Of a stretch of DNA of 64,000 nucleotides, positions 2,864 through 28,948 are shown one piece after another. The DNA is from Yuukianura sp. NJ FZ-2021 (lineage: Eukaryota): assembly GCA_046563655.1 (NCBI GenBank), contig CM102287.1, forward strand, positions 2,108,001 through 2,172,000, given 5' to 3'. The translations under genes and the position numbers were made by a program. The notes under the pieces were generated by a model. The model had not been told where the DNA came from. It saw nothing but the letters and a program-made list of their open reading frames with translations, and did no database searches. How positions within the stretch are numbered: position 1 is the first letter of the stretch; every line of letters starts with the position of its first letter.

Positions 2864-2893
2864 ACTATAAGCATGCGGTGATTCAGGTCATAC

Positions 2894-4893: not shown

Positions 4894-5093
4894 CTGAATT
4901 TCTGTTATTTAATGGTTTAGTATTACACTTTTACACTTGAATAAAATCCAGGGTTTTAAATTATTTGCCACATTGAAAATTCATTTATTGGATTCATATT
5001 GTAAATTTAAACAAAATTTAAACACCAAATAATAAATCAATGTTGTATAAAATTGTAATTTTTTGTTGTTGAAATTTATTCCCAACTGGCCGG

Positions 5094-5513
5094 TGTTACA
5101 CATACCATACGCAAAGAAAAATTACTAAGCCTAAGTTACTTTCTTTTGTTCCTTGTTTTTCGACCTTCACTGAAATCCCTTGAACTTGGGAAAAACAACT
5201 CCCGATTTTTGTATTTTGAAAATAGTTCCCTTTCCCGATCTTGTTTTGTTATTTAGTAAGGTTAAGGTCACTCCATAAGGTCTAGGCTAAAAATTTCCTT
5301 TAAATACCGTAGTACATCACTGTAAGAGGCAGTTGAAATTCGGACTCTGTTTGGTTCGGATCCAACTAAAACTCCGGGGTAGCCAACTAACTAGGCACTC
5401 GTCGAGTTTACCTAACCTAACCTTCCTCTCCCAAAAAATAAGTTAAATAAAAATAATGCACAAGTATTTTTCGAAGGCCTTTATTTTACAAGTTCAAATA
5501 TGAACTTGTAACA
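5094..5513 (+). repeat. 5' LTR of element A (420 bp)
   Basis: Direct repeat of 25971-26389 with TG...CA ends and AATAAA. Confidence 0.96.
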
Positions 5514-5515
5514 TT

Positions 5516-5526
5516 TGGTGCCGAAA
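5516..5526 (+). promoter_or_regulatory. Primer-binding site of A, tRNA-Phe-like
   Basis: TGGTGCCGAAA 2 nt after the LTR, complementary to the tRNA-Phe 3' end. Confidence 0.75.
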
Positions 5527-5901
5527 GCGAACTCTCCTAATTCCAAAATAAGTTTTGGTACCTGGAGAGGCGAACCAGATTAGAATAATTTTCAATGCAG
5601 AACTAGAATTATTTTCATTCGTCAAATTGGTTTCTGTCTAAGCTCATTTTTCAAATGATTTCAGAATCTAAAAATAAAAACTGCCGTGGAAACTTGTCCA
5701 AAAAGAATCCTCATTTTACTCAGATTTGAAGAAAACCTCTCTCCAATTTTTCTACAATAAAGGTAAAAACAAAATCATGTGCACTTCATTTTCTTCTCTT
5801 ATAATTTTAGTCCTTCTTTTAATTTCGGTTTACCTATATTTTCAAAATTTCTTTAACAATCTAATTAAACCCCTAGATTTTTTCAATACCATGCATTTCT
5901 A

Positions 5902-6393
5902 ATGTTTCATTTAAATACTTATATACTAAACGAGATTTTTTCATACTTAACGTTTGAAGAAATTTTTTACTTACAACTTGCGTTTTCTTCTCAAAAACCT
6001 AAAACAAAATTTGAAAAATTACAACTTTTAAACTTCAGGGAAACCACGCACACAATTCTTCAAATCTTGAAGCTAAAAATAGCAATTCATGAAAATAATT
6101 TCATCCATGACGTAATTACTCTGAAATTAAAAATTTCTGGGACTAATGATTTTGAAGACAGTACATTTGTTACTATTAAGTCATACTTAAAAGAACTCCC
6201 GTCCAGCGTAACGTTGTTACCTACGGTAGATCTTTTACTACAATCTGAAATTTATACTTGCAATGTCCATTCCCATTTCATTCATGCCTTAACTACGGAG
6301 GACTTAACGTTATTACAAACTAAATTTATGATTTGGCCTTTTGTTTTTTTACCTCTTTCTAAACTTATTAATATAGAACGTAATAATTCATAA
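5902..6393 (+). CDS. Element A accessory ORF1, N-terminal F-box-like motif (163 aa)
   Basis: MFHLNTYILNEIFSYLTFEEIFYL fits the F-box pattern L(P)xEILxxIFSYLxxxDL. Confidence 0.7.
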   Translation: MFHLNTYILNEIFSYLTFEEIFYLQLAFSSQKPKTKFEKLQLLNFRETTHTILQILKLKIAIHENNFIHDVITLKLKISGTNDFEDSTFVTIKSYLKELPSSVTLLPTVDLLLQSEIYTCNVHSHFIHALTTEDLTLLQTKFMIWPFVFLPLSKLINIERNNS

Positions 6394-6422
6394 TCATACA
6401 AAGTTTCAAATTTTATAATGGA

Positions 6423-6878
6423 ATGGAAATTTTACATACAGATATTTTAGACGAAATTTTCACATATTTAACCTTTAACGATTTAACAAATTTTAAGATA
6501 GCAGTGGAAAACTCAGAATCTTCATTCTTAAAAACTTACACTCTCAATGTTTTTTACAACTCTCAAGAGCAATTGAAAAATCATTTGGCACAATTACCTC
6601 TTTCACTTTCTTATGTATTCATAAGAAATGATCAGTTTATTGGGTGTGTCAACCTCTTAACTAAAACGTTCTTGGAAACCTTGTTTTTAAAAGAATTGTT
6701 CAAATCCACACTTAGGTTATTACTTGAGACACCGATTTGTTACATTCAAATCGAAGCAACTAAATTCCGTGAATTAAACAAACACTGTCGGAATCTTCTC
6801 GCTAAAAAATTTTTTATCCGTTTTCACAAGGAACTTCCAAATGAACTTTCATACTACAAACTAGACCAAAAATTCTGA
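6423..6878 (+). CDS. Element A accessory ORF2, N-terminal F-box-like motif (151 aa)
   Basis: MEILHTDILDEIFTYLTFNDLTNF; C-terminal half aligns with ORF3 (TKTFLETLFLKELFKST / TKAFLLNLPLKHLFRST). Confidence 0.7.
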   Translation: MEILHTDILDEIFTYLTFNDLTNFKIAVENSESSFLKTYTLNVFYNSQEQLKNHLAQLPLSLSYVFIRNDQFIGCVNLLTKTFLETLFLKELFKSTLRLLLETPICYIQIEATKFRELNKHCRNLLAKKFFIRFHKELPNELSYYKLDQKF

Positions 6879-6882
6879 ACAA

Positions 6883-7359
6883 ATGAATGCGTTAGATTTC
6901 CCTTTAGTAGAACAAATTTTATCCTTTCTGACTTCACAGGATATTATTAATTTCTATTTGGCACTTCAGACTAATAAATTGGAATTCACCAATTTACAAA
7001 TCATCTTAGCTACTAAATATTTCGCAATTAAGGATCAGCTTTTAAAACACACTGCTAAAATAAGTCCAAATCTTCATTTCGTGTCTTACGAAACTTCTAC
7101 AACTAGTTTTTGGAAATTCAATTTTACAAAAGCGTTTCTGTTAAACCTGCCACTAAAACACTTATTTCGATCAACTGCACAAATTTTAACCAACACATCA
7201 ATTTGTGGGATTGCAATCACAGTAAACCATTTTAATTCCTTTTCAGAATTAGAAAAGAAATTAATTAAGGCGAAATTTTCAGTTAAATTTAACAAACATT
7301 CAGCATATTCGGAAAGCAACTATATTTTAGAAGAAAAAACAACGTTGTATATGTTTTAG
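6883..7359 (+). CDS. Element A accessory ORF3, N-terminal F-box-like motif (158 aa)
   Basis: MNALDFPLVEQILSFLTSQDIINFYLA; paralogue of ORF2. Confidence 0.68.
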   Translation: MNALDFPLVEQILSFLTSQDIINFYLALQTNKLEFTNLQIILATKYFAIKDQLLKHTAKISPNLHFVSYETSTTSFWKFNFTKAFLLNLPLKHLFRSTAQILTNTSICGIAITVNHFNSFSELEKKLIKAKFSVKFNKHSAYSESNYILEEKTTLYMF

Positions 7360-7415
7360 ATAAAATTTTTCCGGCCAATTGATTTAAATCCCCGTTTAAC
7401 ATTACCAATTCTTAA

Positions 7416-7550
7416 ATGGATGAAGAAAGAGCTGATAAACTAGAAATCTATTGGACAGCTAGTTTACTTTTTGAATTAGCTCTCGCTTTCACTATAATTA
7501 TTGGCCTAGGATTACTCATTATTTTTTATTTTTACAATTTCAACTACTAA
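7416..7550 (+). CDS. 44-aa single-pass transmembrane peptide
   Basis: Hand translation MDEERADKLEIYWTASLLFELALAFTIIIGLGLLIIFYFYNFNY*; fills the gap before gag. Confidence 0.5.
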   Translation: MDEERADKLEIYWTASLLFELALAFTIIIGLGLLIIFYFYNFNY

Positions 7551-7574
7551 ACATCAGTTAAAATCCAAATCAAA

Positions 7575-8741
7575 ATGAGTAAACCTACCAAAGTTGGAAT
7601 TGTTCCAACCAAGTTTAGTCCTAGGGACGATGCCTTCAAATGGTTACAACAATTCGAACTAGTTAGCATAGCTAACTCTTGGACAAATGAAATTAAAGTG
7701 GTCCAGCTTCCAAATTATCTAACTGCATCAGCTAGTTTATGGTACCTAAATTGGAAGAAAGAACGGACTGAAAAACATAAAGCTACTGCTAAGGAAGGTG
7801 ACACGGAGCCAGCAGTTACATGGGCTGAGCTAACTGAAGCGCTCCAGCGCGCTTTTCAAACTGTCGCTAACAAGGAAATAGCGGAACAGAAATTAAATGA
7901 CCGAAAACAACAATTAGGTGAAAGCTTCGAGGATTTTGTATATGCTTATATTGATTTGTGTAATGATTATGACCCTAATATGACTGAAGCCGTAAAATTA
8001 CGGAAGATTACAAGGTCTCTATTACCATACTATCTAGAAAAAATAAACCCTTTAAATTTAAAAACTATAGAAGAATTAATTAGTACAGGACGAAAAATCG
8101 CGGAAACTCAATTCATGTTAGAACAAAATGCTTCTGTGAATGCCGTTAGTGAGGTCAAACCAGAAATGGACAAACTCACAAAACTTTTTGAAAATCAGAC
8201 TGTTCTGATCACTAATATTCTGGAAAATCAGAAGGATTTATCTAAATTACATGAAGATAAAGAAAAGAGAAAAAATTCAAAAAATAATACAAATAAGCAA
8301 AATTTTAAATGTTATTCATGTGGATCGGATTCACATTTTGCTCAAAATTGTGACAAAAAATTCTGTCAAATTCATAATTCTACTACACATTCTACCTACG
8401 AATGTCGCTTAAAAAACGCAATTGGCCGGGGTCCACGGCCCAGGTATGCCATGGGTTCTCGGCCAGTTATATACCAACAACGCATGAATACCAATTACCG
8501 TCCTCGATTCCAATTTTCCCAACCTTTTGCCCTTCAAACTTACCAACCTCGGCCGAGGAATCCCTCCTACAACCCTCGTTCAACCCAAAATTTTCACAAT
8601 TACTATACCTCCCCATACCAATCCCAACAATTGAGCCAACCCTTTCAAAACAATCAAAATTCAACTTCCAATCCTACCCCAGTTCAGTATTACCAAAATC
8701 CACACCAACAGCAACCCACGTTTCCTCCCACGCTCAACTAA
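7575..8741 (+). CDS. gag: Element A Gag
   Basis: Capsid-like region (KWLQQFE...W...RKQQLGESFEDF), CYSCGSDSHFAQNC knuckle plus CQIHNSTTHSTYEC. Confidence 0.92.
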   Translation: MSKPTKVGIVPTKFSPRDDAFKWLQQFELVSIANSWTNEIKVVQLPNYLTASASLWYLNWKKERTEKHKATAKEGDTEPAVTWAELTEALQRAFQTVANKEIAEQKLNDRKQQLGESFEDFVYAYIDLCNDYDPNMTEAVKLRKITRSLLPYYLEKINPLNLKTIEELISTGRKIAETQFMLEQNASVNAVSEVKPEMDKLTKLFENQTVLITNILENQKDLSKLHEDKEKRKNSKNNTNKQNFKCYSCGSDSHFAQNCDKKFCQIHNSTTHSTYECRLKNAIGRGPRPRYAMGSRPVIYQQRMNTNYRPRFQFSQPFALQTYQPRPRNPSYNPRSTQNFHNYYTSPYQSQQLSQPFQNNQNSTSNPTPVQYYQNPHQQQPTFPPTLN

Positions 8742-11700
8742 AATCTTACGAATATTCTTTTATATTAGGCACCAACGGTGGCCTAATCAGAATTAACGGT
8801 CTAATTAATAACCTTCCAGCTCAAATTATAATTGATACTGGGAGTACAGTATCCTTAGTACACCCACGATTTATTCAAGACAAAAACTTACTTAAATTTA
8901 ATATGAACTTAGTAGGTATAGGTCCAGGGAAAGTTTCCGTTACTCACTGGGCAAGAATTCGAATTCAAATTAATAAAATGAGTATTTATTTTAACGTTTA
9001 CGTAGTACCGAGTTTAATGTTTGACTTACTGTTAGGGTTAGATTTTTGTAAGTTCCAAAAGATTTCTCTCAATGTTTCCGAAGAGAAAGTTTCCTGGCAA
9101 GGAATTGATTTAGAAATTGAACCAATAAGTTTAAATAACTTTTTACATAACGATGATAATTCAAAACAATTAAAACAACGAATATTGAATAAAAAGGTAT
9201 TATTATGTCAAATTAAAAATAGAAATCAAAATTTAATAATTCAAAGGAAGAATGAACCCATTCAGGCAGAAATGGAAGGGCACAAGCTGTCAGAACAAAA
9301 TAAACTTATTAATCAAGAAATAATAATTCAAAGGAAAAATGAACCCATTCAGGCAGAAATGGAAGGACACAAGCTGTCAGAAAATAATAAACTTATGAAT
9401 CGAAAAATAATAATTCAGAGGAAGAAAGAACCCATTCAGGCAGAAATGGAAGGACACAAGCTGTCAGAACAAAATAAACTTAAGAATGATCAACCCATTA
9501 CTTTGACAATGGAAGAACACACTGTGTTAAAAATAAACCAAGACATAAAAAATATGAAAAATAATAACGATTTTAATTTTAGGAACACAAGTAATGAATT
9601 AGATAACATTAAGTTACATAACGCGTTAGCATCAGAGCTCTCGTCTACACAACACCAGACACACAACCAGGATCCTTCTGTACATAATGTTAATAATTTC
9701 ATATTGCCGGCTAGGATAGTAAAATTAGTTAAAGTAAAGCTTAATGGCCACCTTAATGACTTGAATTATTTAGAAATTAGTGATGAATTAATTGAGTTAG
9801 GTATCTTAATGCCACCCATTTTGTTACGATCAATTTACTCGGATGAATTTTTGTTTCTTCCACTTATGAATATTCATGATTTCCCGATTACAATTTCAGC
9901 TAATACTAAAATTGCTAATATCAGTACTTTAGAAAATCTTCCAATTGAAGAAAACGTACTGAATATTGCTGAATGTCGTTCTGAAAATTCCAGTACACAA
10001 GTCGACAGTAATACATTCATTAATGATGAAACCCATGTTCAGACCATTTTAGCTAGAATTGCTTCGACAGCCTCATCCGAGGAAAAAACGTTGCTTGAAG
10101 AAATAATTCGAAAATATCAAGATGTTTTTGCTAGACCTGGAGAAATTGGTAAAATAAATTGCTACAAACATAAAATTACACTCATTCCAAATGCCTCTCC
10201 GGTTAAACGAGCTCCTTATAGGAAAGCTCCAGATCTTGAAAAATTTGAACGTGAAAAAATTCAGGAATTGTTAGAACAAGGAGTAATTAGACCATCATGC
10301 TCTCCTTGGGGAGCTGGGGTAGTTATAGTTAGGGATGGGCATAAGTCAGAACAAGAAAAAGAGCCACGATTTTGCATAGATTACCGTCCAGTGAATAAAG
10401 TTACAGTTAAAGATGCGTATCCATTACCAAACATTCAATCCATATTGGACTGGATCGCACCTAGAGCTAATAAAATATCAACCTTAGACGCACAAAAAGG
10501 GTACTGGGCAATATCAATGGATGAGGACAGCATACCTCTTACAGCTTTCATTACACAATCAGGCTTATTTGAATTTGTACGGCTTCCATTCGGTCTTTGT
10601 GGAGCGCCTGCGGCCTATTCCCGGGCACTTTCGATAATTTTGATGAATTACATTTGGACTAATTTAATTAACTATCTAGACGATATTATTTTTAGCAATT
10701 TAACAATTCAGGAACATGTAAAGGATTTAGAATTAGCATTTCAACGATTCAGAAAATATGGATTGAAAATAAATATTAAGAAAAGCCAATTTTTACGAGA
10801 AAAAATACGCATTTTAGGTTACATTGTTTCTAAAAATGGAATAGAAGTAGATCCTGAAAAAACAAAAGCAATTTCGGAGATTAAAACTCCATCTAATATA
10901 AAAGAAATCCAGCAGTTTCTTGGAGCTGTTTGTTTCTTTCGCCGTTTCATTTACCGTTATTCAGAACTTGCCAAACCGTTGACGATTTTGTTACATCAAG
11001 ATAAGAAATTTCATTGGGGTGAACAGCAAGAAAAATCTTTCCAACTTTTAAAAAATGCACTACTTACAGCCCCGGTATTAGCTCATTACGACCCTAATAA
11101 ACCAATCCATGTCGTTACGGATTCTAGTGGATACGGGTTAGGAGCGTCCTTACTGCAACCCGATGAACATGGGGTTGAAAGACCTGTTGCATTTTCTTCC
11201 CGTACTTTAAATAAAACTCAAATTAAATATTCTACCACAGATCGTGAATACTTAAGCATAATTCATGCATTACAGGTATTTCACCCTTATTTGGACTCTA
11301 AATTCTTTACAATTTTTACTGATCATCAACCCATTACTGGACTAAATTTTGCTAAAAATGAGTCTTCTTCCCGATTAGCCAGATATGCATTAATTTTGCA
11401 ACAATATGACTATAAACTTGTTTACCGTAAAGGAACGTTTAATAAATTAGCAGACTGTCTTTCACGTCTTCCCCTTCCTGACAAATTCGATGAAACAGAT
11501 ATAGAAGTACCAAGTTTTTTAATTTCTGAAGATCACTTACCCCAATTACAGTTAGCTGATTCCGATTGTATCCAAATTATAGAAAAAAATGTCTCAATCT
11601 GTATCAAAACCTAAATTTCAACTAAAAAATGGCATTCTGTACAATTGCAACTACGGATACCCACGTCTGGTGGTCCCTCGAGTACTCAGAAAAGAATTAC

Positions 11701-11843
11701 TACAATTAGTACACGAACAAACTCTTTCAGCACACTTGGGCTTTTCACGCTCCTTTGATAAACTTTCTTTGCGCTATTTTTGGCCGTCCATGGCTGCTGA
11801 TCTATCAAATTTTATTCAAGCTTGTAACTCGTGTTTAATTAAT
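8411..11843 (+). CDS. pol: Element A Pol: PR, RT, RNase H and integrase Zn domain; 1-nt frameshift near 11583-11590; split by B
   Basis: IIDTGS, NYLDD, TDSSGYGLGA, TDHQP; H-H-C-C motif in the 11589 frame; slippery A AAA AAC in the gag frame at 8411-8417. Confidence 0.92.
9235..9500 (+). repeat. Three in-frame 87-bp (29-aa) tandem repeats in A pol between PR and RT
   Basis: IIQRKNEPIQAEMEGHKLSEQNKL repeated three times. Confidence 0.9.
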
Positions 11844-12955
11844 TGTTATGGTCAGCATACTGGTTTCCGTGGACACTGACCGATCCACTGAAGCCAGACC
11901 ACTCGGTTGACCTTGTGACCTCTGGTGGGCTCAAACCGACCCACCGAGTCTCCACCTTTCTTCCAGAAGTTTCTGCTCCACTTCCAATGAATTGGAAGGG
12001 GACAGAAGTTTCTCGAAGAAGCAGAAGGGCAGGCTAATAAATTAGCCGTGTCCTTCAACCCAAAATTGTAACACCCGAACACAGAAGCCTGTGTTAAAAC
12101 AAAGGGACAAGCCTTCTGCTTGTCACGAGTCCTTCAGGCCTGGGATCCCTAAAAAAGGAATCTCAGCCCTGAACAAGGGGTCAGTTGTGACTTTGGCTTT
12201 TGGTGGTTACTTTGTCTAAGCGTACAATCTCAGAACCTTGAACGTACATTAAAAATACAACTTAGCAAGTACATTGGAGAGTGCAGAATTCGACAACTTT
12301 ATTTGCCACGACAGGGAAGTGAGATCATAGAACCAGTGAAAGTAGAGACGTGTGTGTGGAGAGTAGTTTCATTGAGTAAGAGATCTACATTGGTGCCTTC
12401 TCCGACTTGGACTTGGGCCGATCAACCACTTGATCCACAGAGAGAGCACATTAACCCAATCTCACCTTCCGACGGGACGGGAGTAGTGTACCTAGGGAGG
12501 AGGAGAGTGTGTACCCAGGAAACCAGACACAGCAGAAGTGACTAGGGTTGGTCGATCATTTTCCAGGTAGCCAATTTACATTGTCTCTTCATTTCCGCTT
12601 TCTATTCTGTCCATCCTCCTCTCTCTATTACTCCTCACTATTTCTGGAGATGAGACGGGAACAGCGCTCCACTTCTAGCAAATCGCTAGGAGTGGACGAC
12701 ACAGCTAACAAACCGTTAGTTGTGTCTCCAGCGACACTTCTGACCCTTGGCTAATCGCGGGGGTCATCGAGCCTCACCGGTCTTCACCATGAGGGGAGAT
12801 CTGCTTCAAGTCACAGAGGATGCCTACCTCGGATGATTCTGCTCACCTAGGTAGGTGGGTTCTAATTCGGCCGATCAGGCCAATTAGAACCCACGGTGGG
12901 GCACCTTGGGTGGGCCCATCGAGAGTTGGAGGTGTTAGGTGTTAGTAGCGTATCA
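11844..12955 (+). repeat. 5' LTR of element B (1112 bp)
   Basis: TGTTATGG...TATCA; direct repeat of 19167-20277. Confidence 0.96.
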
Positions 12956-14562
12956 GACTGGGGGCTCAGACGGGAAACAGCTGGTGACCTTTTCCTAAAC
13001 ACCAGCAAATGTCGTTCGTTACTTTCACTTTCACTTTCACTTCCACTCTCTCCTGCCTTCCAGTTCTTAACTGTGAGGAAAAAGCTCTGCTTTGCCTTCG
13101 TTCGAAATCACTTTCAATTCCGAACTGACAACGTCTGCTACTCAGTGGAGGTCACCCGGGGCGTTGCCCCTCGGATCCAGCTCCTCTTCACTCCATCGTC
13201 ACTCCGTGGCTCACGCAGGAAGGTTTGACCTGTTACTGGGCTATGGGGGGGGGATGCCAAGGTCAAGAGGAGCATTCCACCTCTTTCCAGTACAAACCTG
13301 CTGGAAGCGGTGGGTTGGTTTAAAATTCTGAAAAACAAAACTAAAATTCCCCTGGTGAATCCTGGAAATTCTGCAAATCTTTCACTGAATTCTTCTAAAT
13401 CTTCATCAAAATTCGGTAGAATCTGTTAGTTGCTTGTACCTGGAATCTATAAGGAAGAACAGGCGTCTAAGTTCAGCTCCACTTCTTCAGTTTTCGGGAA
13501 CACGTGACCCATTGTCCCACCGAGATCCCACATGGACGCATGGCGTGGTTAGTAGGGGGTGGCAGTGGAAAATTAGTCACTTATCTTTCTTTGGTTAGAT
13601 TTTTCTTTTTGTGTGACCTCTGGGGTCAATCCCACAACTCAAAAGTGGGAAACCTGATAACTTTCAAAAACTTTTCGGCCATTTATTTTTATTACTCTTT
13701 CGACACTCCAAATTATTGCCTAGCTAAATCTCTGCGTGAGATAAGGAGGATTTTAGGTTTCGAAAAACTGCTGTTATCTGCAACGCAGTTAACTTTTCAG
13801 TTATTATCAACGTTCTGTTTGAACTTTATGTAATCTTCGGATTTGGAGGTTTCAAAAACTGGAAGTTAAGCACGTCTCTGCAATTAAGATTAACTTGAAG
13901 ATCCGGCACGAGGAGGAAGAGATGGGTGGATCCTAGGTACCCCTCCTTTCTCATCCACCCTCACCTTAGTTTAATTGATGTTTTGCGAATCTGATTCGCA
14001 AGGTCAATCAAACTTTGAGTTCGCTCGGTCTTCATCTGCTTCTGTCTGATCTGTTGTCTGCTGTCTGGTGTCTGGATGGGAAGACTTTTGGTGAAGGCTG
14101 AAAAACGCTACCCTGGATTTTCAGAAATCCTGACGGTCAAGTCCAAATCTCATCATGTTCTGGTCTGATTCTGTTCTGTTCTGCAAACTGCTCTGCTCTG
14201 ATTCTGGTCTGATTCTGATTCTGCAAATGGACTTTGAGGAATGACGTTTGATCTGTCTTGAATCCGGGTAGATTCCTAGAAGCCAAGATCAACTGGAGAA
14301 CCCAAGTCTAAAATATTCTGCTTCTGTTCTGAACTTTGATTATTGTGGGGAAGCTTCTAGTGATTAGTTAGTTAATTACTGAAGCTGGAAAACTATAATT
14401 CAAATGGATTATTAATTCAACGGAGAAATAGATACCAGTATGTGCCTCGAACCGAATCCGCTAGGTTCCAAATTGGGAACGCGCTGAACTCTTACTTCCT
14501 AAATGCTTCTGGGGAGATCCGGGTTAATTAAGGATTAAAGAAGGCTGTACATTTTCCAGAAA

Positions 14563-15585: not shown

Positions 15586-15806
15586 TCCATAGTTAACCGT
15601 GGCTCAGTGGTCTCCTACCCATAATCACTACGATTCTGGGAAGTAAAACTAATACCTTCTCAACTACACGATTATGTTCTTAATTAAATGATTAAGGATT
15701 AATAGAAATCACGTTAAACTTTGATACTTCAAATAGTCGAACAATTGGTTCCACGAATCGAACTGTTACCTAGTACCAGGTTAACATTTCTTCTCTGCTT
15801 TCCAGA

Positions 15807-18608
15807 ATGCACAACAATTTGTACCAACCTAACATTTCTGTGACTGAAGGCAGAGAGTTGAACTACAAGGTTTGGCAGCGAGAAGTAAAATGGCAAGGAC
15901 ACCAACTCACTCCACCGCTCAACTTCGACTCCATACCGGAGCCGGAGAAAATGCGGGCTTACAACATTTACCTTGAGTCGGTTCGACTCGGAACTCGCGT
16001 TAATGCCATGCTGGCCAACATGTTGCGGCAGAGGGACTTCGTCTTTGCGGCTCCAATTGAGCACCAGCTGAAGGGCGAAGAAATGCTCAACCGCGGTGGT
16101 CCACATTACCGCCACATCCAAACAAACCACATCAAATACACGAAAAAGTACAAGGCAACTCCGAGGGTGCGAGCACAGTTAAATCCACAACCACAACAAC
16201 GCCACCGAGGTCAACCCCGACAGTATCGGAATGATAATTATTCCGACAATGACAATGAGTACTATGCTCGTCACGCCTCACCAGAGGTTGAAGAATTACC
16301 AAACCGGCATTCTTCTCCTCGCAGCAAATCACGTGAACGATCCGAGGGCCCCAGGAGCGACTCCAGTCGGTACCACAATAGAAAATCTGACGATCGTGAT
16401 CGAAACTGTAATCCCCAGCGTTATCGCCGCCGGGACAACTCTCCAGACCGGAGGAAATACTCCAGCCCTCAGCGACATCTTCATCAAAGCGATAAAGAAA
16501 GCCGAAGTGACAACCGACATTCCAACTCCACACGCCATCACGTAGATCGTTCCGGTACTCGAACAGAGTATTGGACTGATTTTACCGCTCATTTTTCCAA
16601 AAGCAAGAAAGTCGATCGATTGGAGCAGCGCAAGCAGCACAAATCAGCAACACAGCTCCAAGTTTCCAGTGCTCAACCCGATCAGTGGACCGATGTGGGA
16701 GAAAAACATTCCTATTCACACCATCGATCAACAGCCCAACCGTCCACTCACCGCAAACCTAATTCCTTCTTCGGATACCGCTGTTTGTCTCCTCCTGCAG
16801 TACATTTCAAGACTGGAATTGATGGCCAAACCGGTCATTCTTCCATCAACTACCAGCCGGTATGGGAAACTCGGAACACGACAACTACCTACAAACAGTT
16901 CTGGACTAATTCCAAACCCACAACCGATGTGCGTTCAACAGAGATGGAGATCAACAGGAGTCCACTCCCAAACTACTCTCCGCCCAATCCCAACTCCCGT
17001 CCATTCCCAAAAGGTGGATTCATTAAACCGGAACTGGAGGATCGCTTTTCACGCCATAATCCTCTCCCAAATGATGTCAAAACATATGGCGGTTACGAGC
17101 GCGACACTTTTCGTAAGACCACCCAACGAGAGAATGCGTACTTCAGTACCCTACACCGACCCAAGTCTACGACAAGCCCATCGACAAACCCGCAAGATAT
17201 TTCAGGAAAAGTGACTGAAATTGATTGCACGATCCACAACGCTCCACCTTGGCACACCAATGGTATATCAAACCGACTACCATCGAAACTCTCACCTTCG
17301 GTAAACAGCCAGCAAAAGATTACTCAGCCAAATCAGCTCAGCCAACCGTCAAAATCCCTGTCTAATTTTGCTGGATTGTTACCTAAACCAAAATCCGTTG
17401 AACAGGACGCTCTTAGTTCTCCAACTGAATCAGTTGACGTACTTGCACAAACCGTGCAAGTACGAACGAAACACACAGGTCAACGCCCGCCAATCCCGGA
17501 AGTGGACGAACCGTCAACTCTAACTCGCCTCACCTCGTCCACACTTATAGAGAAACTGTACGCAAAAATCCAAAGTCTCGAGCAAAAATTTGAGGAGCAA
17601 AATCTTCACCTTCAAACATCTCCAAAACAAACTCCAATCACGAGTAACTCGGCTTCCGCCCAGCAATGCCAACGACAAAGACAGCAAAAATCATTTCCCC
17701 TACCCGTTCCACACAATTTCTTTTCAACGGAACCCCGGAAAGAGCTAGTTGTACAACTAAAGCAACTCACGGAGGAAGAGTGCAGTAACAGCAACACTAC
17801 TACGTCACCAAACGGAGGCCAAAAGTCTAACTCATCACTAGCTAATTTCAAAATTCCTCTTCTCTCCAAGCAGAAGGCTCCGGTCGTTCGCCGTTCCCGC
17901 GACCCATTTCCATCTCCGAGACGGACTAAAACCTCAGCTTTGTCAAAACAGCAGAAAACAGAGTCTTCCCCTGCATCCCAACGGGCGAACTCTTGGTCCA
18001 CACCGGATCGCAAGCGCTCTACTCATCACTCCCGAGAGACGTCACGATCAGAAGGCTCAAAACCGAGGCGTAGATCAAAATCGCCTCCTCAATGCTCCAC
18101 TTCACGTCCTAAACGTAGACCACAAAAGACGGAAAAGCGAACTATCAAAATTAAACTCCCATTCCCAACTATCGAATTCACACAAGACGATTTTCCACCA
18201 CTTCCCACCAAAACCATCACTATTCTCCACGACGCTCACCGTACCAGCTCCAAAGCAACAACAGCCTACCTCCGCCAGCTAAAGGGAAAGAAGCGTCCTC
18301 AACCAACTCCCGGGGCCCCACGAACCGTGAAGTCTCCACCACCTCAGGAACCGAGCATACCGCTCAAACCCCAACATCCGGACACCTCGGAAGCCACCGA
18401 TCCCATCCGCCCTGGAACACTACAGCATCCCACCAACCCAGCTCCAAAGTCCCCCGATATTCCAATCATCACCATTCCGCCAGGACTGATCTCCTCCGAC
18501 CTACCAAGTAACTTCAAAGAATATCTGCTTGATGCTACCGAAGAATACATCCATCTCAATGAAGTGGATCAAGAAGACGACGCAGTATCCACCAAACCGC
18601 GAGATTGA
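15807..18608 (+). CDS. Element B ORF2, 933-aa S/R/P/Q-rich, probably disordered protein
   Basis: Long uninterrupted ORF with no PR/RT/IN motifs; polypyrimidine-CAG acceptor (15804-15805) just before the ATG. Confidence 0.7.
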   Translation: MHNNLYQPNISVTEGRELNYKVWQREVKWQGHQLTPPLNFDSIPEPEKMRAYNIYLESVRLGTRVNAMLANMLRQRDFVFAAPIEHQLKGEEMLNRGGPHYRHIQTNHIKYTKKYKATPRVRAQLNPQPQQRHRGQPRQYRNDNYSDNDNEYYARHASPEVEELPNRHSSPRSKSRERSEGPRSDSSRYHNRKSDDRDRNCNPQRYRRRDNSPDRRKYSSPQRHLHQSDKESRSDNRHSNSTRHHVDRSGTRTEYWTDFTAHFSKSKKVDRLEQRKQHKSATQLQVSSAQPDQWTDVGEKHSYSHHRSTAQPSTHRKPNSFFGYRCLSPPAVHFKTGIDGQTGHSSINYQPVWETRNTTTTYKQFWTNSKPTTDVRSTEMEINRSPLPNYSPPNPNSRPFPKGGFIKPELEDRFSRHNPLPNDVKTYGGYERDTFRKTTQRENAYFSTLHRPKSTTSPSTNPQDISGKVTEIDCTIHNAPPWHTNGISNRLPSKLSPSVNSQQKITQPNQLSQPSKSLSNFAGLLPKPKSVEQDALSSPTESVDVLAQTVQVRTKHTGQRPPIPEVDEPSTLTRLTSSTLIEKLYAKIQSLEQKFEEQNLHLQTSPKQTPITSNSASAQQCQRQRQQKSFPLPVPHNFFSTEPRKELVVQLKQLTEEECSNSNTTTSPNGGQKSNSSLANFKIPLLSKQKAPVVRRSRDPFPSPRRTKTSALSKQQKTESSPASQRANSWSTPDRKRSTHHSRETSRSEGSKPRRRSKSPPQCSTSRPKRRPQKTEKRTIKIKLPFPTIEFTQDDFPPLPTKTITILHDAHRTSSKATTAYLRQLKGKKRPQPTPGAPRTVKSPPPQEPSIPLKPQHPDTSEATDPIRPGTLQHPTNPAPKSPDIPIITIPPGLISSDLPSNFKEYLLDATEEYIHLNEVDQEDDAVSTKPRD

Positions 18609-19166
18609 ACTACTTGACAACAAACTGTGAAGACTGACCAGCGTAGCGTTAAGTTTCTTTCCTGTTGAATTCATTAATTATCAACTACTTTTTTTCTTAT
18701 CTTTTCCATCTCATAGTTATTACATTAGCTAAAATACTAACCAAGTACCTCTAAGATAAACTAGTATCAACCATTACTGCATAGTTACCTCAAACAATCA
18801 ACAATCTTCAAATTTTATGAAGTTAACCTCTTTGCAACTATTTTACTAAATTCGAACTAATTTGCTACAACTTTTCTTATCTCAAACATAAAACACTCGT
18901 AATTAACTTTATTTTGTATAACAGTAATCACATCCCCTCTACGAAACTTGTTAACCCTCCAATTTAGTTTTACAAATTCTTATTAGATACCTTCGTAGTT
19001 TTAAGATAATATGATTTCACTAACTCCACTAACCCTGTAATATTACATTTACCTCACGTAAAATGCCAATGAATCAGTCACCACAAGCCAAATCAGTCTA
19101 CGCAGCTTTGCAACGCAATCACCGCTTAGAGCTGATGAGACATCAGCTTCCCGAGGGGGGGAGTGG

Positions 19167-20277
19167 TGTTATGGTCAGCATACTGGTTTCCGTGGACACT
19201 GACCGATCCACTGAAGCCAGACCACTCGGTTGACCTTGTGACCTCTGGTGGGCTCAAACCGACCCACCGAGTCTCCACCTTTCTTCCAGAAGTTTCTGCT
19301 CCACTTCCAATGAATTGGAAGGGGACAGAAGTTTCTCGAAGAAGCAGAAGGGCAGGCTAATAAATTAGCCGTGTCCTTCAACCCAAAATTGTAACACCCG
19401 AACACAGAAGCCTGTGTTAAAACAAAGGGACAAGTCTTCTGCTTGTCACCAGTCCTTTAGGCCTGAGATTCCTAAAAAAGGAATCTCAGCCCTGAACAAG
19501 GGGTCAGTTGTGACTTTGGCTTTTGGTGGCTACTTCGTCTAAGCATAGAACCTCAGAACTTTGACATACATTAAAAACACAAGTTAGCAAGTACATTGGA
19601 GAGTGCAGAATTCGACAACTTTATTTGCCACGACAGGGAAGTGAGATCATAGAACCAGTGAAAGTAGAGACGTGTGTGTGGAGAGTAGTTTCATTGAGTA
19701 AGAGATCTACATTGGTGCCTTCTCCGACTTGGACTTGGGCCGATCAACCACTTGATCCACAGAGAGAGCACATTAACCCAATCTCACCTTCCGACGGGAC
19801 GGGAGTAGTGTACCTAGGGAGGAGGAGAGTGTGTACCCAGGAAACCAGACACAGCAGAAGTGACTAGGGTTGGTCGATCATTTTCCAGGTAGCCAATTTA
19901 CATTGTCTCTTCATTTCCGCTTTCTATTCTGTCCATCCTCCTCTCTCTATTACTCCTCACTATTTCTGGAGATGAGACGGGAACAGCGCTCCTCTTCTAG
20001 CAAATCGCTAGGAGTGGACGACACAGCTAACAAACCGTTAGTTGTGTCTCCAGCGATACTTCTGACCCTTGGCTAACCGCGGGGGTCATCGAGCATCATC
20101 GGTCTTCGCCATGAGGGGAGATCTGCTTCAAGTCACAAAGGATGCCTACCTCGGGTGATTCTGCTCACCTAGGTAGGTGGGTTCTATTCGGCCGATCAGG
20201 TCAATTAGAACCCACGGTGGGGCACCTTCGGGTGGGCCCACTGAGAGTTGGAGGTGTTAGGTGTTAGTAGCGTATCA
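19167..20277 (+). repeat. 3' LTR of element B
   Basis: Direct repeat of 11844-12955, preceded by a PPT. Confidence 0.96.
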
Positions 20278-21915
20278 TAATAAAGTATCACATGAAAAAA
20301 GATACGGGCTTCTTAAACCACTTCCAGTTCCAGAAACAATTTTTGAACTGGTTTCAACTGATGTATGTGGGCCATACCCAATTAGCCAATCAGGAAACAA
20401 GTATATTGTCAATATTATTTGTCATTTTTCTAAATGGGCGGAGCTTAAAGCGATACCTGACCAAACAGCTGAAGCTATTGCTAAATTTTTACACGAAAGG
20501 GTTTTTTCACGTATGGGTTCTGTTCGTTACTTATTAAGTGACAACGGAGGACCGTACATAAGTGAATTATTGAAAACTTACTGCAGGTTATATAAAACTA
20601 AACATTTATTTATCACGCCTTATAATTCTAGGGGCAACGGACTTGCTGAACGGTTACATTTAACAATGAATCGTATGCTATCACATTATGTCAGCACAAT
20701 GCACAATAACTGGGACCTAAATTTAGAACAAATTCAATTTGCTTACAATACTGCTAAACATGAAAGTACTCATCAGAGTCCCTATCGTATTGTATTTAAT
20801 CGTGAGCCATCATTTCCTTATCAATTACCTTCTTCTGAGACTTTACGGTCTAATTGCGACATTTTTCATCTGCGTAAACTTGTAAAAGAAACTTTAGAAA
20901 AAGAACAAGAAAGATATAAAATTCGTGAGGATCAACGACGCAAGGAAGTCGATTTTAAAATTGGAGACAAAATTAAACTCAAATTTCCTCGCCGCACTGA
21001 GAAAGGTCAATCTAAAAAATTTATACCATACTATTTAGGGAATTACGAGATTTTAGAAAAACTTAATGATCTCCTCTATAAAATTAAATGTTTAAAAACA
21101 AATACCGTTTCCACAGCACACGTAGGAAGAATGCGGAAAATTTTTGCTTGGGACTTACCAGATATCGAAAGTGATACATATTACACTACTCTTGACAATT
21201 TAAAAGAAGATTTAGACTCTCCCGAGAAACTATTTTTTACTTTAAAACAAAATTTTACTGGAACCAGACAAGAATTAACTCATCCCTTTTCCACTGGATA
21301 TACTTCTTTTGACATTATTTACTATAAATCATTATTAAATTGGATAGATATACAACAAATTATTGAAAAATACGGACTAACTGACATTTTACTACTAAAC
21401 ATTTATTCGTTTGTAACTAATTATTTTCCACGGTTAAAGCTTACTCCTAATTTTCAAATTTTTACCCTGAAGAAGCCAATTCCATTTGCAATCTATAAAT
21501 TCACAAGCGAAATTTCTTTTAACGATCTAGAAGAATTCTTTACTCATATGCATCGAAAAATTTTACTACGTTTTGATAAAAATTTGTTTGAATTTTTGTT
21601 AAAATTTATTACACATTCTAAAAATAAATTATATTTATATCCTTCAATATCTAAAATTCTACAGACCCTATTATTCAACGTTGGTAGTGACAATCTCAAT
21701 TTAGTAAACTTAACTACTATTCTTACCTTACCTCCATTAAAGAACTATACAAAGAAAGTGAATTCATACCAATCAATGACAACTCGTGAGATGACGAGGG
21801 ACCAAATACTTTCACTCCACAAGGAAAGATGAAAGAACAATTTCGACAAAAACCATATGAAAAACGCATTAGAAAGAAACCAATTTGGATGAAAGATTAT
21901 GTAGTTGATTCCTAA
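20278..21915 (+). CDS. pol: Element A integrase core with long C-terminal extension (late frameshift before ~21830)
   Basis: VSTDVCGPY, LSDNGGPY, GNGLAER (DDE), GPY/F-like region; tail KRIRKKPIWMKDYVVDS* lies in a shifted frame ending 21915. Confidence 0.88.
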
Positions 21916-22029
21916 TCAGCTTCACAACTACACAAATACTAAAAAATTTTCGGTTACACAACTAACATGGTTTCTTTTTCATTTCAGAAATCTCGTACAA
22001 CTTAAATCATTTTTCCAAAAGCAGTATAG

Positions 22030-24198
22030 CAACGAATTTTTTTCCTTATTTTCACAAGATTTTCAAATTCTACATTCATTATATTACTAACAATTTTAGC
22101 ACTCCTTTTCTGTTTAGCTCAAACCCAGGATTCTCCTATTGATCAACTGTTTACAAAATTGGACACTAAAACCGAAATTCTGTATTACTGTAGGGGATAT
22201 ACGGCTGGAATTCCTTGGAATATTCCTCCACCAATCAAATGCCCACTAGTTTCGACGGAAAAACCTTCTAAACTAGTAGACATAACTCTCTGGTGGACTG
22301 ACATTAGTTTAAATGCTATTCAGGGATTCGAATGTTACAAAATAGTAGAAGAGGTTAAAACCTACCGCCATTTTTTTGGGAAAAGAGATAAAGAATATCG
22401 GAAATACAAATTACCTGTGTCAGAGAAAGAATGTCGCTTAATGATAAGAACTCACGCAAGCCCCCTGACATCACAAACCAAATTAAATCGCATTTCTGAT
22501 GGTTACTTTGGTACTGCTGACATATTATCTCTCGACTACTATTGGCTCGGCACTGATTACAAAACAGTTACGAATTATTTCATGGTCGCTCTGACACTTT
22601 CAATATCCAATACAGATGATACCATAATTACTACTGCGAAAACTGTAGGACAATGTAAATATCAGACAGGTACATGTGATACCGAAAATGGAATTCTTTG
22701 TTGGACTCCAAAGGACGTGAAGATATGTAGGATGAAAGAAGGTGATTCTGCTACATGTTTATTTACTGAAGATCGCCTGTCATGTCCAACATTAGAAATT
22801 GCCATTACTAAAGTCATTCCTGTTAAAAAATGTGGATTGATTTTCGGTACATCTGCTCAAGGTATTATTTTCACCGAGAGTAATAATTCTTTAAATTTTG
22901 CTATTTCTTTAACGAATCTCACGCGGAATGTAATCAATAATCCCACACGTTATAAACGTTCTCATGACGATGATTCTTCTGAAGAAGATGAAGGTTCCGC
23001 GGAGGAAATTGAAACACAAAATGGTGAAACTCTCATACCTAAATTATCGGAACTATTAATACCAGCACCAGAAAAACCCGAAACTCCAACATTGGTAACT
23101 ACGGGAGAACTCAATAGCAGATTACTTTACTTATATCAAATTGTTTCAAGTTCTTACCATTTTGGTATTCAAACTGTTCATCGCGACACGTGCAAAGCCC
23201 ATCAAGCACATTTAGAACTTCTTAGGGTACTAGCAGCTACGGGACAACCTAGTGTACTGGTACGCACGTTACTAAAAAATCCAGCATTACGAGCTAAAAC
23301 AAATGGAGACATCCTTTCTGTTTATAAATGTGAAGAAGTTGACACTTACATGCTACTTCCTCAAACTGGTTGCTATCTGGAGTGGCCAATTGAATTTTAT
23401 GTAGGCGTGGACCGAATGCAAGGGTACTTAACTGGTATCAATCATGAAATTGTAAAAGACCCAACTCATACTTCTTGTCCATCTCCTAATTTTTATTTTG
23501 AATATGGAACTATGACTATTCACTTGACTAACAGAACAGTTATTGAAAATTTATCAGTTTTACCTTCTAACTATGAAGACACAAAATTGGAAACAATGCC
23601 AGAATTGTCCTTCTCCGCCCCTGGAGTCTACTCATTGGACGAAGTGGGTGGAGCAGAGACAATTGCGGCTATCTTAAAGGAACTTTCTAAACAAAATAAA
23701 ATTGACAATATCTTACAAAGCACACATTCCAACTTAGGACCTATTGAATCAAAAACTATTACTCTGTTAAGAGAATACGTATTAACACCTTTCCAAAACG
23801 TTTTAGCCACTATTTGCATGTCCGGACTAGCCATTTTTATTGTTGTTATAACACTCAAGTATGCGTATAAAAACAGAGCGTATTTTCAACAGATCTTTCA
23901 TAGAATTAAATTACTTTCGCATACTAAGAAAAAAAGACAAGTTCGTAATAAGCCTGTTAAAATCCCTAGCAGCGATTCCGAAACTGAGAATGTTCCTTTA
24001 CAAGTTCAAGCTCCAGTAATGAACACTCGACAGGTTATGAGAAGAACTAAATCACGGAAAAATCGATCTCGGGTTGTCAACAGTAATCCAAAAATATTTA
24101 AACCCCAATATTCCTGTACCACTGTAAATGAGGTTCGTAAACCTAATAACTTAACACCCAAATATCCATTTGAAGAATTAAAAAGAATTCAAAATTAA
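22030..24198 (+). CDS. env: Element A Env, class III viral fusion glycoprotein-like (gB / rhabdovirus G / chuvirus G type)
   Basis: Frame is open from 22030 with a signal-like FIILLTILALLFCLAQ but no ATG; Cys-rich ectodomain, candidate fusion loops RHFFG and YYWLG, furin site RYKR, gB-like RTLLKNPALRAKTNGDILSVYKC, C-terminal TM and basic tail. Confidence 0.8.
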   Translation, partial: QRIFFLIFTRFSNSTFIILLTILALLFCLAQTQDSPIDQLFTKLDTKTEILYYCRGYTAGIPWNIPPPIKCPLVSTEKPSKLVDITLWWTDISLNAIQGFECYKIVEEVKTYRHFFGKRDKEYRKYKLPVSEKECRLMIRTHASPLTSQTKLNRISDGYFGTADILSLDYYWLGTDYKTVTNYFMVALTLSISNTDDTIITTAKTVGQCKYQTGTCDTENGILCWTPKDVKICRMKEGDSATCLFTEDRLSCPTLEIAITKVIPVKKCGLIFGTSAQGIIFTESNNSLNFAISLTNLTRNVINNPTRYKRSHDDDSSEEDEGSAEEIETQNGETLIPKLSELLIPAPEKPETPTLVTTGELNSRLLYLYQIVSSSYHFGIQTVHRDTCKAHQAHLELLRVLAATGQPSVLVRTLLKNPALRAKTNGDILSVYKCEEVDTYMLLPQTGCYLEWPIEFYVGVDRMQGYLTGINHEIVKDPTHTSCPSPNFYFEYGTMTIHLTNRTVIENLSVLPSNYEDTKLETMPELSFSAPGVYSLDEVGGAETIAAILKELSKQNKIDNILQSTHSNLGPIESKTITLLREYVLTPFQNVLATICMSGLAIFIVVITLKYAYKNRAYFQQIFHRIKLLSHTKKKRQVRNKPVKIPSSDSETENVPLQVQAPVMNTRQVMRRTKSRKNRSRVVNSNPKIFKPQYSCTTVNEVRKPNNLTPKYPFEELKRIQN

Positions 24199-24285
24199 CA
24201 CCAAACCTATAAAACTAAAATCACACTATACATCTATACTTTACTATACTATACATCTATTCCTATTTTTGTGTCCAACTTTCTA

Positions 24286-25473
24286 ATGTCTATATTAACA
24301 AACACTTTACATGCTCCAAACTACTCTACAAATTCTAGTAAAATGGGACGGAGAAACAAACGGCAAGGAGCGGGAGTAAAACAACGGAAATTGGAAAAAC
24401 GAAAACAACAAACTCAATTAAGACGGGAAATTAGATTCGAAAATATTCAAAAAATGAGCTCAGAACAACCACTCTCAGGAGTTTTAAATACCCAATGGGT
24501 TTTAACGGATACTAATAAACGACAACGACTAAACAAATTAACGACAGGAAAAATGAAAATGTTAAAAAATAGTACTGTAGAGTCTAATATAAATAATTAC
24601 CATAAGGCTTATATTAAGGACGAGGAATGTGTTTTTACCAACCATAGTGAGATACGTAAGGATCACGAATTTGTTAGAAAACACTATTTTGAAGAGAAAA
24701 AAGGAAAACTTGTATATAGGAAATATCAAATTATTCCATTTGATGAGATAATTAAGGCCCCTTCCCTTTCCAAGAATGTCAACCCACAAGTTACTCCCAT
24801 CATCCCTCGTCCCCTCCAAAATACACAACAAGCCGCCGACTTTCTCCAAATTTCATTGCAAGAATTCTTGGACCACCCTTCGAATAGTTCAACACAGGAA
24901 ATGAACCCACAAATCCGAACTTTGACGTTACATGCAGAACAAACTCAGCATCATACAACAACACAAACACCCAATAACTCAATCACCCAGGATGTTACAT
25001 CAATTCTCAAAGAAATGATGTCTTCACAACCGGCACTCTCTCCAATACCCTCTGCTGATTCTTCAGATTCATCTTCTTCTGATTCATCATCTTCATCAGA
25101 TTCGACCGATTCTTCATCAGATGATTCAGACTCATCCTCATCTTCCTCATCAAGCGATTCAGACTCCGAAGATGGTGACCCTTCAACATACTCCGATCGT
25201 CATTTTGAAATTGACGGTATTGTGGACGAATCAGAATATGTAGACTTAGGTTTAGATATGTTAACGGAGGAGGAACAACAACTTTATAGGCAACCAAATT
25301 CAACAAATCTCGAAAACTGTTGCGAAATTATTTTAAGCGATGATGAAGACAATATGGACTCTACCCAAAATTCGTTGGACCAAAAACATAAACAAGATGC
25401 CGCAACTTATAAAAAATTATCAACACAAGAACGAATCCAATTTGTTCACGAATTTGAAGGAGAATCTAAATAA
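24286..25473 (+). CDS. Element A post-env ORF, basic N-terminus and Ser/Asp-rich acidic C-terminus
   Basis: ~395-aa ORF; MGRRNKRQGAGVKQRKLEKRK followed later by a poly-S/D tract. Confidence 0.6.
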   Translation: MSILTNTLHAPNYSTNSSKMGRRNKRQGAGVKQRKLEKRKQQTQLRREIRFENIQKMSSEQPLSGVLNTQWVLTDTNKRQRLNKLTTGKMKMLKNSTVESNINNYHKAYIKDEECVFTNHSEIRKDHEFVRKHYFEEKKGKLVYRKYQIIPFDEIIKAPSLSKNVNPQVTPIIPRPLQNTQQAADFLQISLQEFLDHPSNSSTQEMNPQIRTLTLHAEQTQHHTTTQTPNNSITQDVTSILKEMMSSQPALSPIPSADSSDSSSSDSSSSSDSTDSSSDDSDSSSSSSSSDSDSEDGDPSTYSDRHFEIDGIVDESEYVDLGLDMLTEEEQQLYRQPNSTNLENCCEIILSDDEDNMDSTQNSLDQKHKQDAATYKKLSTQERIQFVHEFEGESK

Positions 25474-25529
25474 TGTAAAATAATATTACTAATCACTTTA
25501 TACTAAATCAACACTACTAAAACTAAAAT

Positions 25530-25541
25530 CCTTAAAAAAAA

Positions 25542-25582
<41 letters not shown>

Positions 25583-25810
25583 TAAAATAAAAAAAAAAAA
25601 TTAAAAAAAAAATAAAATAAATAAATAAATAAAAAAAAATAATAATAATAAAAATAAAAATAAAATACACGAAGACATAAAAATAAAAAAAAAATACAAA
25701 TAAAGATAAAAAAAAAAACAATTAACTAAAATTAATACTGGTAATAATAATATTCCTAATGTTAAAAATAATACTCACAATAATAATCATAATAATAATC
25801 ATAATAATCA
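25530..25810. repeat. A-rich and (AAT)n low-complexity tract in the 3' UTR of A
   Basis: Seen directly. Confidence 0.85.
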
Positions 25811-25970
25811 TCATACTTTTCTTTCAATCTGTTTTTGTTTCTTACACCTAGCTATCATAATCGTTACATTCTAACTCAAATGTCCAGTTACCTATTACAC
25901 AATTATCTTTATGTGGTTACTTCTAAATACACAATTTTTGGGGACAAAAATTTTTTTATGAGGGGAGACA

Positions 25971-26389
25971 TGTTACACATACCATACGCAAAGAAAAATT
26001 ACTAAGCCTAAGTTACTTTCTTTTGTTCCTTGTTTTTCGACCTTCACTGAAATCCCTTGAACTTGGGTAAAACAACTCCCGATTTTTGTATTTTGAAAAT
26101 AGTTCTCTTTTCCGATCTTGTTTTGTTATTTAGTAAGGTTAAGGTCACTCCATAAGGTCTAGGCTAAGAATTTCCTTTAAATACCGTAGTACATCACTGT
26201 AAGAGGCAGTTGAAATTCGGACTCTGTTTGGTTCGGATCCAACTAAAACTCCGGGGTAGCCAACTAACTAGGCACTCGTTGAGTTTACCTAACCTAACCT
26301 TCCTCTCCCAAAAGTAAGTTAAATAAAAATAATGCACAAGTATTTTTCGAAGGCCTTTATTTTACAAGTTCAAATATGAACTTGTAACA
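25971..26389 (+). repeat. 3' LTR of element A
   Basis: Direct repeat of 5094-5513; PPT GAGGGGAGA at 25960-25968. Confidence 0.96.
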
Positions 26390-28798: not shown

Positions 28799-28948
28799 TC
28801 AATTGCCGGGGTATTTCCACCCTAATACGTTGCACTTGCGTAATGCTCTGCTTTCTACTTCAGCTACAACGTGCTAACATAAGTTAGCGCGTCCAAACCA
28901 AATTTGACTTAGGGTGTAATTGGTTGAAATTAAAAAACAGTTTCAGTA

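Follow-up and report, generated by a model that had tools for sequence, protein, structure and literature searches.

Does the retrovirus-like element inserted in this contig of Yuukianura sp. NJ FZ-2021 carry accessory genes of its own in addition to gag, pol and env? The stretch analysed (the window) comprises 64,000 nt, positions 2,108,001-2,172,000 of CM102287.1, and all coordinates of the insertion, element A (5094-26389, + strand), refer to it; the features of A described below also lie on the + strand. The original prediction, made from the letters alone, gave A the genome plan of a complex retrovirus, with three F-box open reading frames (ORFs) and a transmembrane (TM) peptide ahead of gag and a further ORF, ORFX, behind env. 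Every ORF named there exists. Judged by sequence comparison, the lineage of A keeps a 5' cassette, made up of a predicted 41-residue membrane peptide and, in tandem behind it, two or three paralogues that measure 150-175 residues.

In A, this cassette begins with a 41-codon ORF for a single-pass hydrophobic peptide (5777..5902), the stop codon of which overlaps the ATG of accessory ORF1 (5902..6393, 163 aa) in the arrangement TAATG. Accessory ORF2 (6423..6878, 151 aa) follows after a gap of 29 nt, and accessory ORF3 (6883..7359, 158 aa) begins 4 nt past the end of ORF2. The three proteins are 20-30% identical to one another. ORF3 is a paralogue of ORF2 (E 6e-15), while ORF1 shows an F-box-like N-terminal motif only and has no Pfam match. 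An exhaustive profile search of 1.84 billion representatives returned two matches. P0002, a bacterial protein of repetitive sequence in which no stretch was matched, was discarded. The other match, P0003 (174 residues, E 8e-4), led to L001, a metagenome contig of 9075 bp. Three metagenome loci were considered in total, and the remaining two, L002 (bacterial genes) and L003 (a match through the same 40-residue stretch), were dropped. Read from 5' to 3', L001 consists of a long terminal repeat (LTR) beginning with TGTTACAC, the same primer-binding site (PBS) as A, a hydrophobic 41-codon ORF at 1023-1148, two paralogous ORFs (ORFa and ORFb) of 164 and 174 codons spaced 4 nt apart, gag, pol and env. 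Positions 1-508 of the contig, which flank its 5' LTR, are a long (AAATAAAT)n-like microsatellite.

The two elements have no nucleotide match, and their proteins are well diverged (45% identity for gag, 41-58% for pol and 48.5% for env). Their small ORFs nevertheless share position, order, length and N-terminal motif, so that the predicted extra genes ahead of gag are borne out in these respects. The 41-residue peptides are identical at 15 of 41 positions, an alignment score reached by none of 20000 shuffles. Among the longer proteins, the E values were 5e-23 between ORFa and ORFb, 7e-7 between ORF2 and ORFb, 1e-4 between ORF2 and ORFa, and 0.002 between ORF1 and ORF2 over 24 residues. When the region 5514-7574 was shuffled 2000 times, the longest ORF obtained had 143 codons, against the 163, 158 and 151 observed. 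The gene order of A was recovered in its main part only: L001 has the succession PBS, small ORFs, gag, pol and env, with two paralogues instead of three and without the TM peptide. The latter, a hydrophobic ORF of 44 codons (7416..7550), is probably not a gene. No ORF of at least 15 codons lies between the last accessory ORF and gag in L001, and the membrane peptide that does have a counterpart there is the 41-codon ORF.

Sequences of A were also present in three of four public sequencing runs, under two organism labels and from two studies, in all cases as DNA contigs. The identity of these contigs to A ranged from >99% down to <90%, which indicates that A is a family rather than a single locus. 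Variant counts rest on a chosen subset, 40 of the 2188 differences being listed. Fifteen of the listed variants fall in ORF1 and ORF2; ten of them occupy third codon positions (binomial p 0.0085) and nine are synonymous. In pol, taken as a control, the count at third positions was eight of nine. All eight indels listed within A were located in the non-coding leader, at 5576-5783. Conservation in L001, ORF lengths compared with shuffles and this variant pattern together indicate that the cassette represents real genes of the lineage. We regard the anatomy of A and the conserved cassette, taken together, as highly probable.

The boundaries of A were confirmed. The 5' LTR (TGTTAC...GTAACA, 5094..5513, 420 nt) is 98.3% identical to the 3' LTR (25971..26389), as determined by BLAST of the two ends, and the pair is framed by a target-site duplication, GCCGG, at 5089..5093 and 26390..26394. 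The flanks of A recur in the window, joined and inverted: self-comparison aligned 2283-5093 with 32208-29399 (99.75% identity) and 26390-26844 with 29403-28949 (100%). The joined copies overlap by exactly 5 bp (29399-29403, where GCCGG is present once) and thus constitute an uninterrupted empty site, showing that A is a true insertion with a 5-bp duplication. Once a nested element (B) and one TAAT are subtracted, A measures 12,858 bp, in agreement with the predicted figure of about 12.9 kb. The PBS of A is TGGTGCCGAAA (5516..5526), the equivalent position in L001 being occupied by TGGTGCCGAAAC; no tRNA gene with which it could be checked was found within the window. A polypurine tract, GAGGGGAGA (25960..25968), adjoins the 3' LTR. 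Direct TG...CA LTRs, a target-site duplication, a PBS and a polypurine tract are all as expected for Ty3/gypsy (Metaviridae-type) elements, and so is the pol order, protease, reverse transcriptase (RT), RNase H and integrase, with gag upstream in another frame. The same order was found in L001.

Pfam domains confirmed the predicted gag-pol-env succession, with two corrections. The gag ORF (7575..8741, 388 aa) contains a zinc-knuckle region and matches Retrotrans_gag with E 7.5e-5 (23.3 bits, cut-off 24.1); the L001 gag scores 30.9 bits for the same family. The first part of pol (8378..11614), in the -1 frame relative to gag, matches aspartic protease, RT (E 1.5e-25) and RNase H (E 1.9e-33). 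Between the protease and the RT, at 9214-9487, lie three in-frame tandem units of 87 nt (29 residues), 88% identical. The integrase zinc-binding domain (pol part 2, 11589..11843; Integrase_H2C2, E 2.2e-16) is in a frame different from that of part 1. Pol is therefore not continuous in this copy, the frame breaking within 11589-11614, where the L001 pol, an intact ORF of 1600 codons, runs on. The third part (20279..21832) comprises the integrase core, an SH3-like domain and a C-terminal extension of ~230 aa, and is 48% identical to residues 1061-1542 of the L001 pol. The extension (~21150-21829; ~7400-8190 in L001) has no Pfam match and is kept between the two elements. In most other copies, a listed variant at 21765 shortens pol by 22 codons.

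The second correction concerns env (22030..24198). This ORF matches Monjiviricetes_fusion (PF24664) with E 1.8e-12 (46.5 bits, cut-off 27), and thus encodes a class III fusion glycoprotein. Its frame is open from 22030 and the first ATG, where env had been placed originally, is at 22441. The 137 residues upstream of this ATG align with the L001 env from its signal peptide onward and are therefore real env sequence, so that the earlier coordinates were too short. The extended env, for which Monjiviricetes_fusion gave E 3e-12, also matches Rhabdo_glycop_FD (PF00974) with E 2.7e-4 (22.1 bits, cut-off 22) over residues 97-144, ahead of the first ATG. A signal-like hydrophobic stretch is located at ~22070-22120 and a membrane anchor at ~23820-23880; the L001 env has its own ATG and signal peptide. 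A is thus an endogenous retrovirus-like Ty3/gypsy element, or errantivirus, with a class III (gB/rhabdovirus-G-like) envelope. It is a fairly recent insertion, and this copy is now defective, owing to B inside the integrase, a break in the pol frame where RNase H meets integrase, and an env without start codon.

Element B (11844..20277) is a nested LTR element and no part of A. Its LTRs (1113 bp) are 97.5% identical and TAAT stands on both sides. It is inserted within the integrase zinc-binding domain of A, and the pol frame is the same on either side of it. B carries a gag-like ORF (14563-15585) and a low-complexity ORF of 933 codons that belongs to no family. No RT was found in it, and B consequently looks non-autonomous. 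Contigs of runs X1, X2 and X3 aligned to 5500-25499 join position 11839 directly to 20278, with four shared bases, indicating that some copies of A lack B; run X1 contains A but shows no depth over B.

At the other end of A, ORFX (24286..25473, 395 aa) shares the frame of env, from which a single stop codon separates it. Shuffles of this region, the DNA of which has 30% G+C, gave at most 126 codons, against the 395 observed. In the structure model, with a mean predicted local distance difference test (pLDDT) score of 48.7, residues 29-59 form a confident basic helix, and the protein also has a long disordered tail that is acidic and rich in Ser and Asp. For one variant contig, two skips within ORFX are listed; they measure 204 and 66 nt, both multiples of three. 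No family or relative was found with Pfam, an IMG/VR scan, the Atlas or 8000 scored word-seeded candidates of 'near' lengths, and L001 ends before the corresponding region, inside env. ORFX is probably a gene, and the lineage of A may carry it as a 3' gene. Its frame is already open directly after the env stop (24196-24198); the sequence may reflect readthrough of this stop, or ORFX may be a former long tail of env.

We then considered how genes placed behind such a cassette could be expressed. As had been predicted, gag needs something beyond simple scanning: 22 ATGs precede it, against 29.4 +/- 5.2 in shuffles. The absence of ATG depletion makes leaky scanning to gag unlikely, and this route was rejected. 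Also rejected was an IRES (internal ribosome entry site)-like structure before gag as a conserved feature, the spacer being structured in A (z -2.75) and not in L001 (z +0.88). Candidate splice signals were recognised by their motifs. A strong donor-like motif closes the leader in both elements: in A, AG/GTAAAA (5761..5768, cut 5762/5763) lies 14 nt before the first ORF; L001 has AG/GTATGT at 1019-1026, just ahead of its first ORF, the sole AGGTRW inside that element. Upstream of env, A has a pyrimidine-rich acceptor-like tract, TTTCTTTTTCATTTCAG (21970..21986), and L001 has TTCTTCTTCAG ~97 nt before its env ATG, such tracts thus standing ~100 nt before env in both elements. These motifs suggest a scheme in which the full-length RNA, left unspliced, would be both the genome and the mRNA of the 5' cassette. 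The cassette ORFs would be translated by termination-reinitiation, which fits their abutting or overlapping arrangement (TAATG, 4-nt gaps). Splicing from the conserved donor-like motif where the leader ends would give access to gag-pol, env and ORFX. We give this scheme, which is read from the motifs, roughly an even chance.

The function of the paralogues was approached through their N-termini. The Pfam F-box profile, the cut-off of which is 20.5 bits, aligned with residues 2-24 of ORF2 at 13.1 bits (E 0.099) and of L001 ORFb at 14.8 bits (E 0.028). With a profile of the N-terminal 50 residues, three distinct proteins were listed in eight rows; two of them, yeast Cdc4 (E 0.98) and KDM2B (E 2.3), align in register through their F-boxes, and the third, YPD1, fills six rows. 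The language-model feature clusters nearest to P0003 are F-box families (score 0.90), with few shared features. The paralogues could, tentatively, be Skp1-binding proteins. In that case the F-box-like N-terminus would bring in the Skp1-cullin-F-box (SCF) ubiquitin ligase of the host to act on restriction factors. A role as SCF adaptors, comparable with that of lentiviral Vif and Vpu or polerovirus P0, is conceivable by analogy, at somewhat less than even likelihood. The fast divergence of the paralogues and their lineage-specific duplication fit a conflict with host restriction factors.

Taken as a whole, the explanation that combines anatomy, cassette, expression and function has in our view slightly better than an even chance, and a number of observations weigh against it. 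ORF1 is tied to the family solely via 24-32 N-terminal residues. There is a single cassette-bearing relative, and no further member turned up in two large protein collections: a word-seeded protein search with the three-ORF profile scored none of 1381 candidates of 'near' lengths, and the five-ORF profile recovered only the two proteins of L001 itself among 1765 such candidates. IMG/VR scans with the gag alignment and the env alignment gave no match, and tblastn showed no further copies of any accessory protein elsewhere in the window. Codon-usage scores favour the annotated frame in A and fail to separate the frames of the two L001 ORFs, and are for this reason uninformative. The codon-position count comes from the chosen 40 of 2188 differences, and one listed variant, at 6557, is by itself a stop in ORF2, seemingly so in one diverged X1 contig. 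With regard to expression, L001 has a weak acceptor-like site ahead of its gag, and the folded spacer of A has no equivalent there. As for the F-box, every signal is sub-threshold, and of the five proteins, counting ORF1-ORF3 and the two of L001, three have no Pfam F-box match at all; the F-box identity given to ORF1-ORF3 by the original prediction is thus not upheld by Pfam. Searched against the PDB at E<=10, full-length profiles matched no chain that has an F-box. The AlphaFold model of ORF2 (pLDDT 65) has three N-terminal helices with a pLDDT of ~80, and no fold matched it clearly: Foldseek found nothing at E<=0.001, and VIA-align gave a best Z of 4.5, F-box entries scoring Z 3.5-3.7. An F-box typically has a conserved proline in its LP motif and a later tryptophan; both are missing from the accessory proteins.

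These observations leave room for other explanations. The 5' ORFs might be real, conserved genes without being F-box proteins or SCF adaptors, the N-terminal helix acting instead in oligomerisation, in contacts with RNA or Gag, or in the control of expression. Such a role would fit a cassette that is conserved while no F-box test reaches significance and whose C-terminal two thirds match nothing; it fits less well with three independent weak signals that agree in register at the N-terminus and indicate the F-box and no other family. We take it as a serious contender that falls short of an even chance. Splicing, too, has a competitor, in that gag-pol, env and ORFX may be expressed from internal promoters, or from the full-length RNA by way of reinitiation or an IRES. 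The ORFs abut as they do in coupled translation, the gag spacer of A folds better than its shuffles, and the Oikopleura Tor elements are said to provide a precedent for internal expression of env. Serial reinitiation, however, would yield little gag from a fifth ORF, the folding signal is absent in L001, and donor- and acceptor-like motifs are placed alike in the two elements. Expression without splicing appears rather unlikely to us.

The most sceptical alternative is that the extra ORFs are passengers, either captured host fragments or decaying remnants, and that ORFX is a chance extension or a former tail of env. It draws on properties of ORFX, for which no homologue was found, which sits in the env frame behind a single stop and which is mostly disordered. 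The 5' cassette has been retained despite the divergence of the core proteins of A and L001, though, and the listed variants are biased to third positions. ORFs of this length never occurred in 2000 shuffles, and the two skips in ORFX preserve the frame. Passengers are in our view very improbable.

Accessory genes that counter host defences are a hallmark of complex vertebrate retroviruses; among invertebrate LTR elements, to our knowledge, only isolated cases of accessory genes have been documented, such as CERV of Cer1. If our explanation is true, genes for interaction with the host also occur in env-bearing retroelements of arthropod-like hosts, in the form of a conserved, fast-evolving and duplicating cassette. 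This cassette would offer a tractable system for studying the expression of a gag gene that stands fifth among the reading frames. Should the paralogues also prove to be F-box proteins, there would be unknown host restriction factors that are targeted for degradation. A lentivirus-like kit might even have evolved here independently, with a duplicating family of F-box-like adaptors acting through the SCF ligase, a Vpu-like peptide, a Rev-like 3' protein and a polycistronic, multiply spliced genome having gag as its fifth ORF, an idea that we consider unlikely on present evidence.

The surroundings of A are rich in transposable elements. The 3.3-kb segment that supplied the empty site occurs twice in the window in inverted orientation (2283-5093 plus 26390-26844, and 28949-32208), one copy containing A and the other empty. 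Between these arms, on the minus strand, an ORF at 26906-28030 matches a Pox_A32-type packaging ATPase (E 6e-6). The arms and this ORF suggest a Maverick/Polinton-like remnant or its terminal inverted repeats. Farther downstream there are two Bel/Pao elements, at 33921-40413 (LTRs 33921-34372 and 39970-40413) and at 41711-55137 (LTRs 41711-42101 and 54745-55137). The second of them is interrupted by a Ty3/gypsy element (LTRs 46357-46780 and 52693-53118, 98% identical), which represents a second nested insertion in the window. Tandem arrays with periods of 42 nt and others are found in the flanks at 28606-28857, 40561-41035 and 60624-61461.

The gene plan of A can be compared with several known systems. 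Complex retroviruses possess accessory genes such as Vif, Vpr and Vpu of lentiviruses, or orfC of walleye dermal sarcoma virus, which lies upstream of gag, and several of their products hijack cullin-RING ubiquitin ligases. A would resemble them in having small accessory genes at both ends and a small predicted membrane protein (as Vpu), and its 5' cassette shows the conservation among relatives that marks accessory ORFs in such viruses. It differs from them in being of Ty3/gypsy type by its pol domains, outside Retroviridae, with genes unrelated in sequence. Short viral proteins with a minimal, degenerate F-box, namely polerovirus P0, nanovirus Clink and poxvirus PRANC, bind Skp1 and so redirect host degradation; the paralogues of A are like them in their short F-box-like form, by analogy only.

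Among retroelements, the core of A has close parallels. Chary & Hayashi (eLife 2026, PMC13524379) report Ty3/gypsy elements with an env gene, its product being of F-type or gB-type, from across the metazoans, among them springtails. A retrovirus-like lineage in invertebrates, as had been proposed, therefore stands as far as an env-bearing LTR element is concerned, and its core is not new. With the errantiviruses that have an HSV/gB-type ENV, A shares the order LTR, PBS, gag, pol, env and the class III fusion glycoprotein (PMC13524379). The reverse complement of the L001 PBS, GTTTCGGCACCA, is the one given as Phe_GAA/His_GUG in Supplementary file 1 of PMC13524379, and the PBS 12-mer of L001 is the same as that of Fcan_errantivirus_1, a springtail element with a gB-type ENV. 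The ENV of the latter (Collembola_C2 in PMC13524379) and the env of A match, in a count made by eye, at ~46 of 101 ungapped residues, with seven of seven cysteines aligned. By eye, then, the core of A seems closest to the published springtail elements. These resemblances make a springtail, or a comparable soil arthropod, the probable host. Unlike the published errantiviruses, going by the wording of the main text of PMC13524379 alone, in A ORFs take up ~1.8 kb ahead of gag, and a further ~1.8 kb separates env from the 3' LTR; 'accessory', 'F-box' and 'upstream of gag' do not occur in that main text. A literature term search returned no paper linking errantiviruses with an F-box, and nothing relevant on a retrotransposon F-box or additional ORFs upstream of gag.

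Additional ORFs have been described in other LTR elements. In bdelloid rotifers, ORF3 types located 3' of pol encode esterases, exonucleases or env-like proteins (PMC5408684), and additional ORFs (aORFs) of plant LTR retrotransposons are mentioned in PMC8220671. Like A, these elements have captured extra ORFs, including small ones with membrane segments; a tandem paralogue cassette before gag does not figure in the passages of PMC5408684 and PMC8220671 that deal with them. Cer1 of C. elegans, according to the account of it in PMC10309623, expresses the lineage-conserved CERV from a spliced mRNA, and CERV, a Rev-like accessory protein, is required for export of the unspliced genomic RNA. It offers a functional model for ORFX, the N-terminal helix of which is basic. 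Cer1 differs from A in that CERV overlaps the polyprotein frame, with no separate 3' ORF, and in the absence of both env and a 5' cassette (PMC10309623). CERV and ORFX match neither in sequence nor in structure. The gag-pol-env core of A is thus of a known kind, and what is new in this element is the conserved 5' cassette and, possibly, ORFX.

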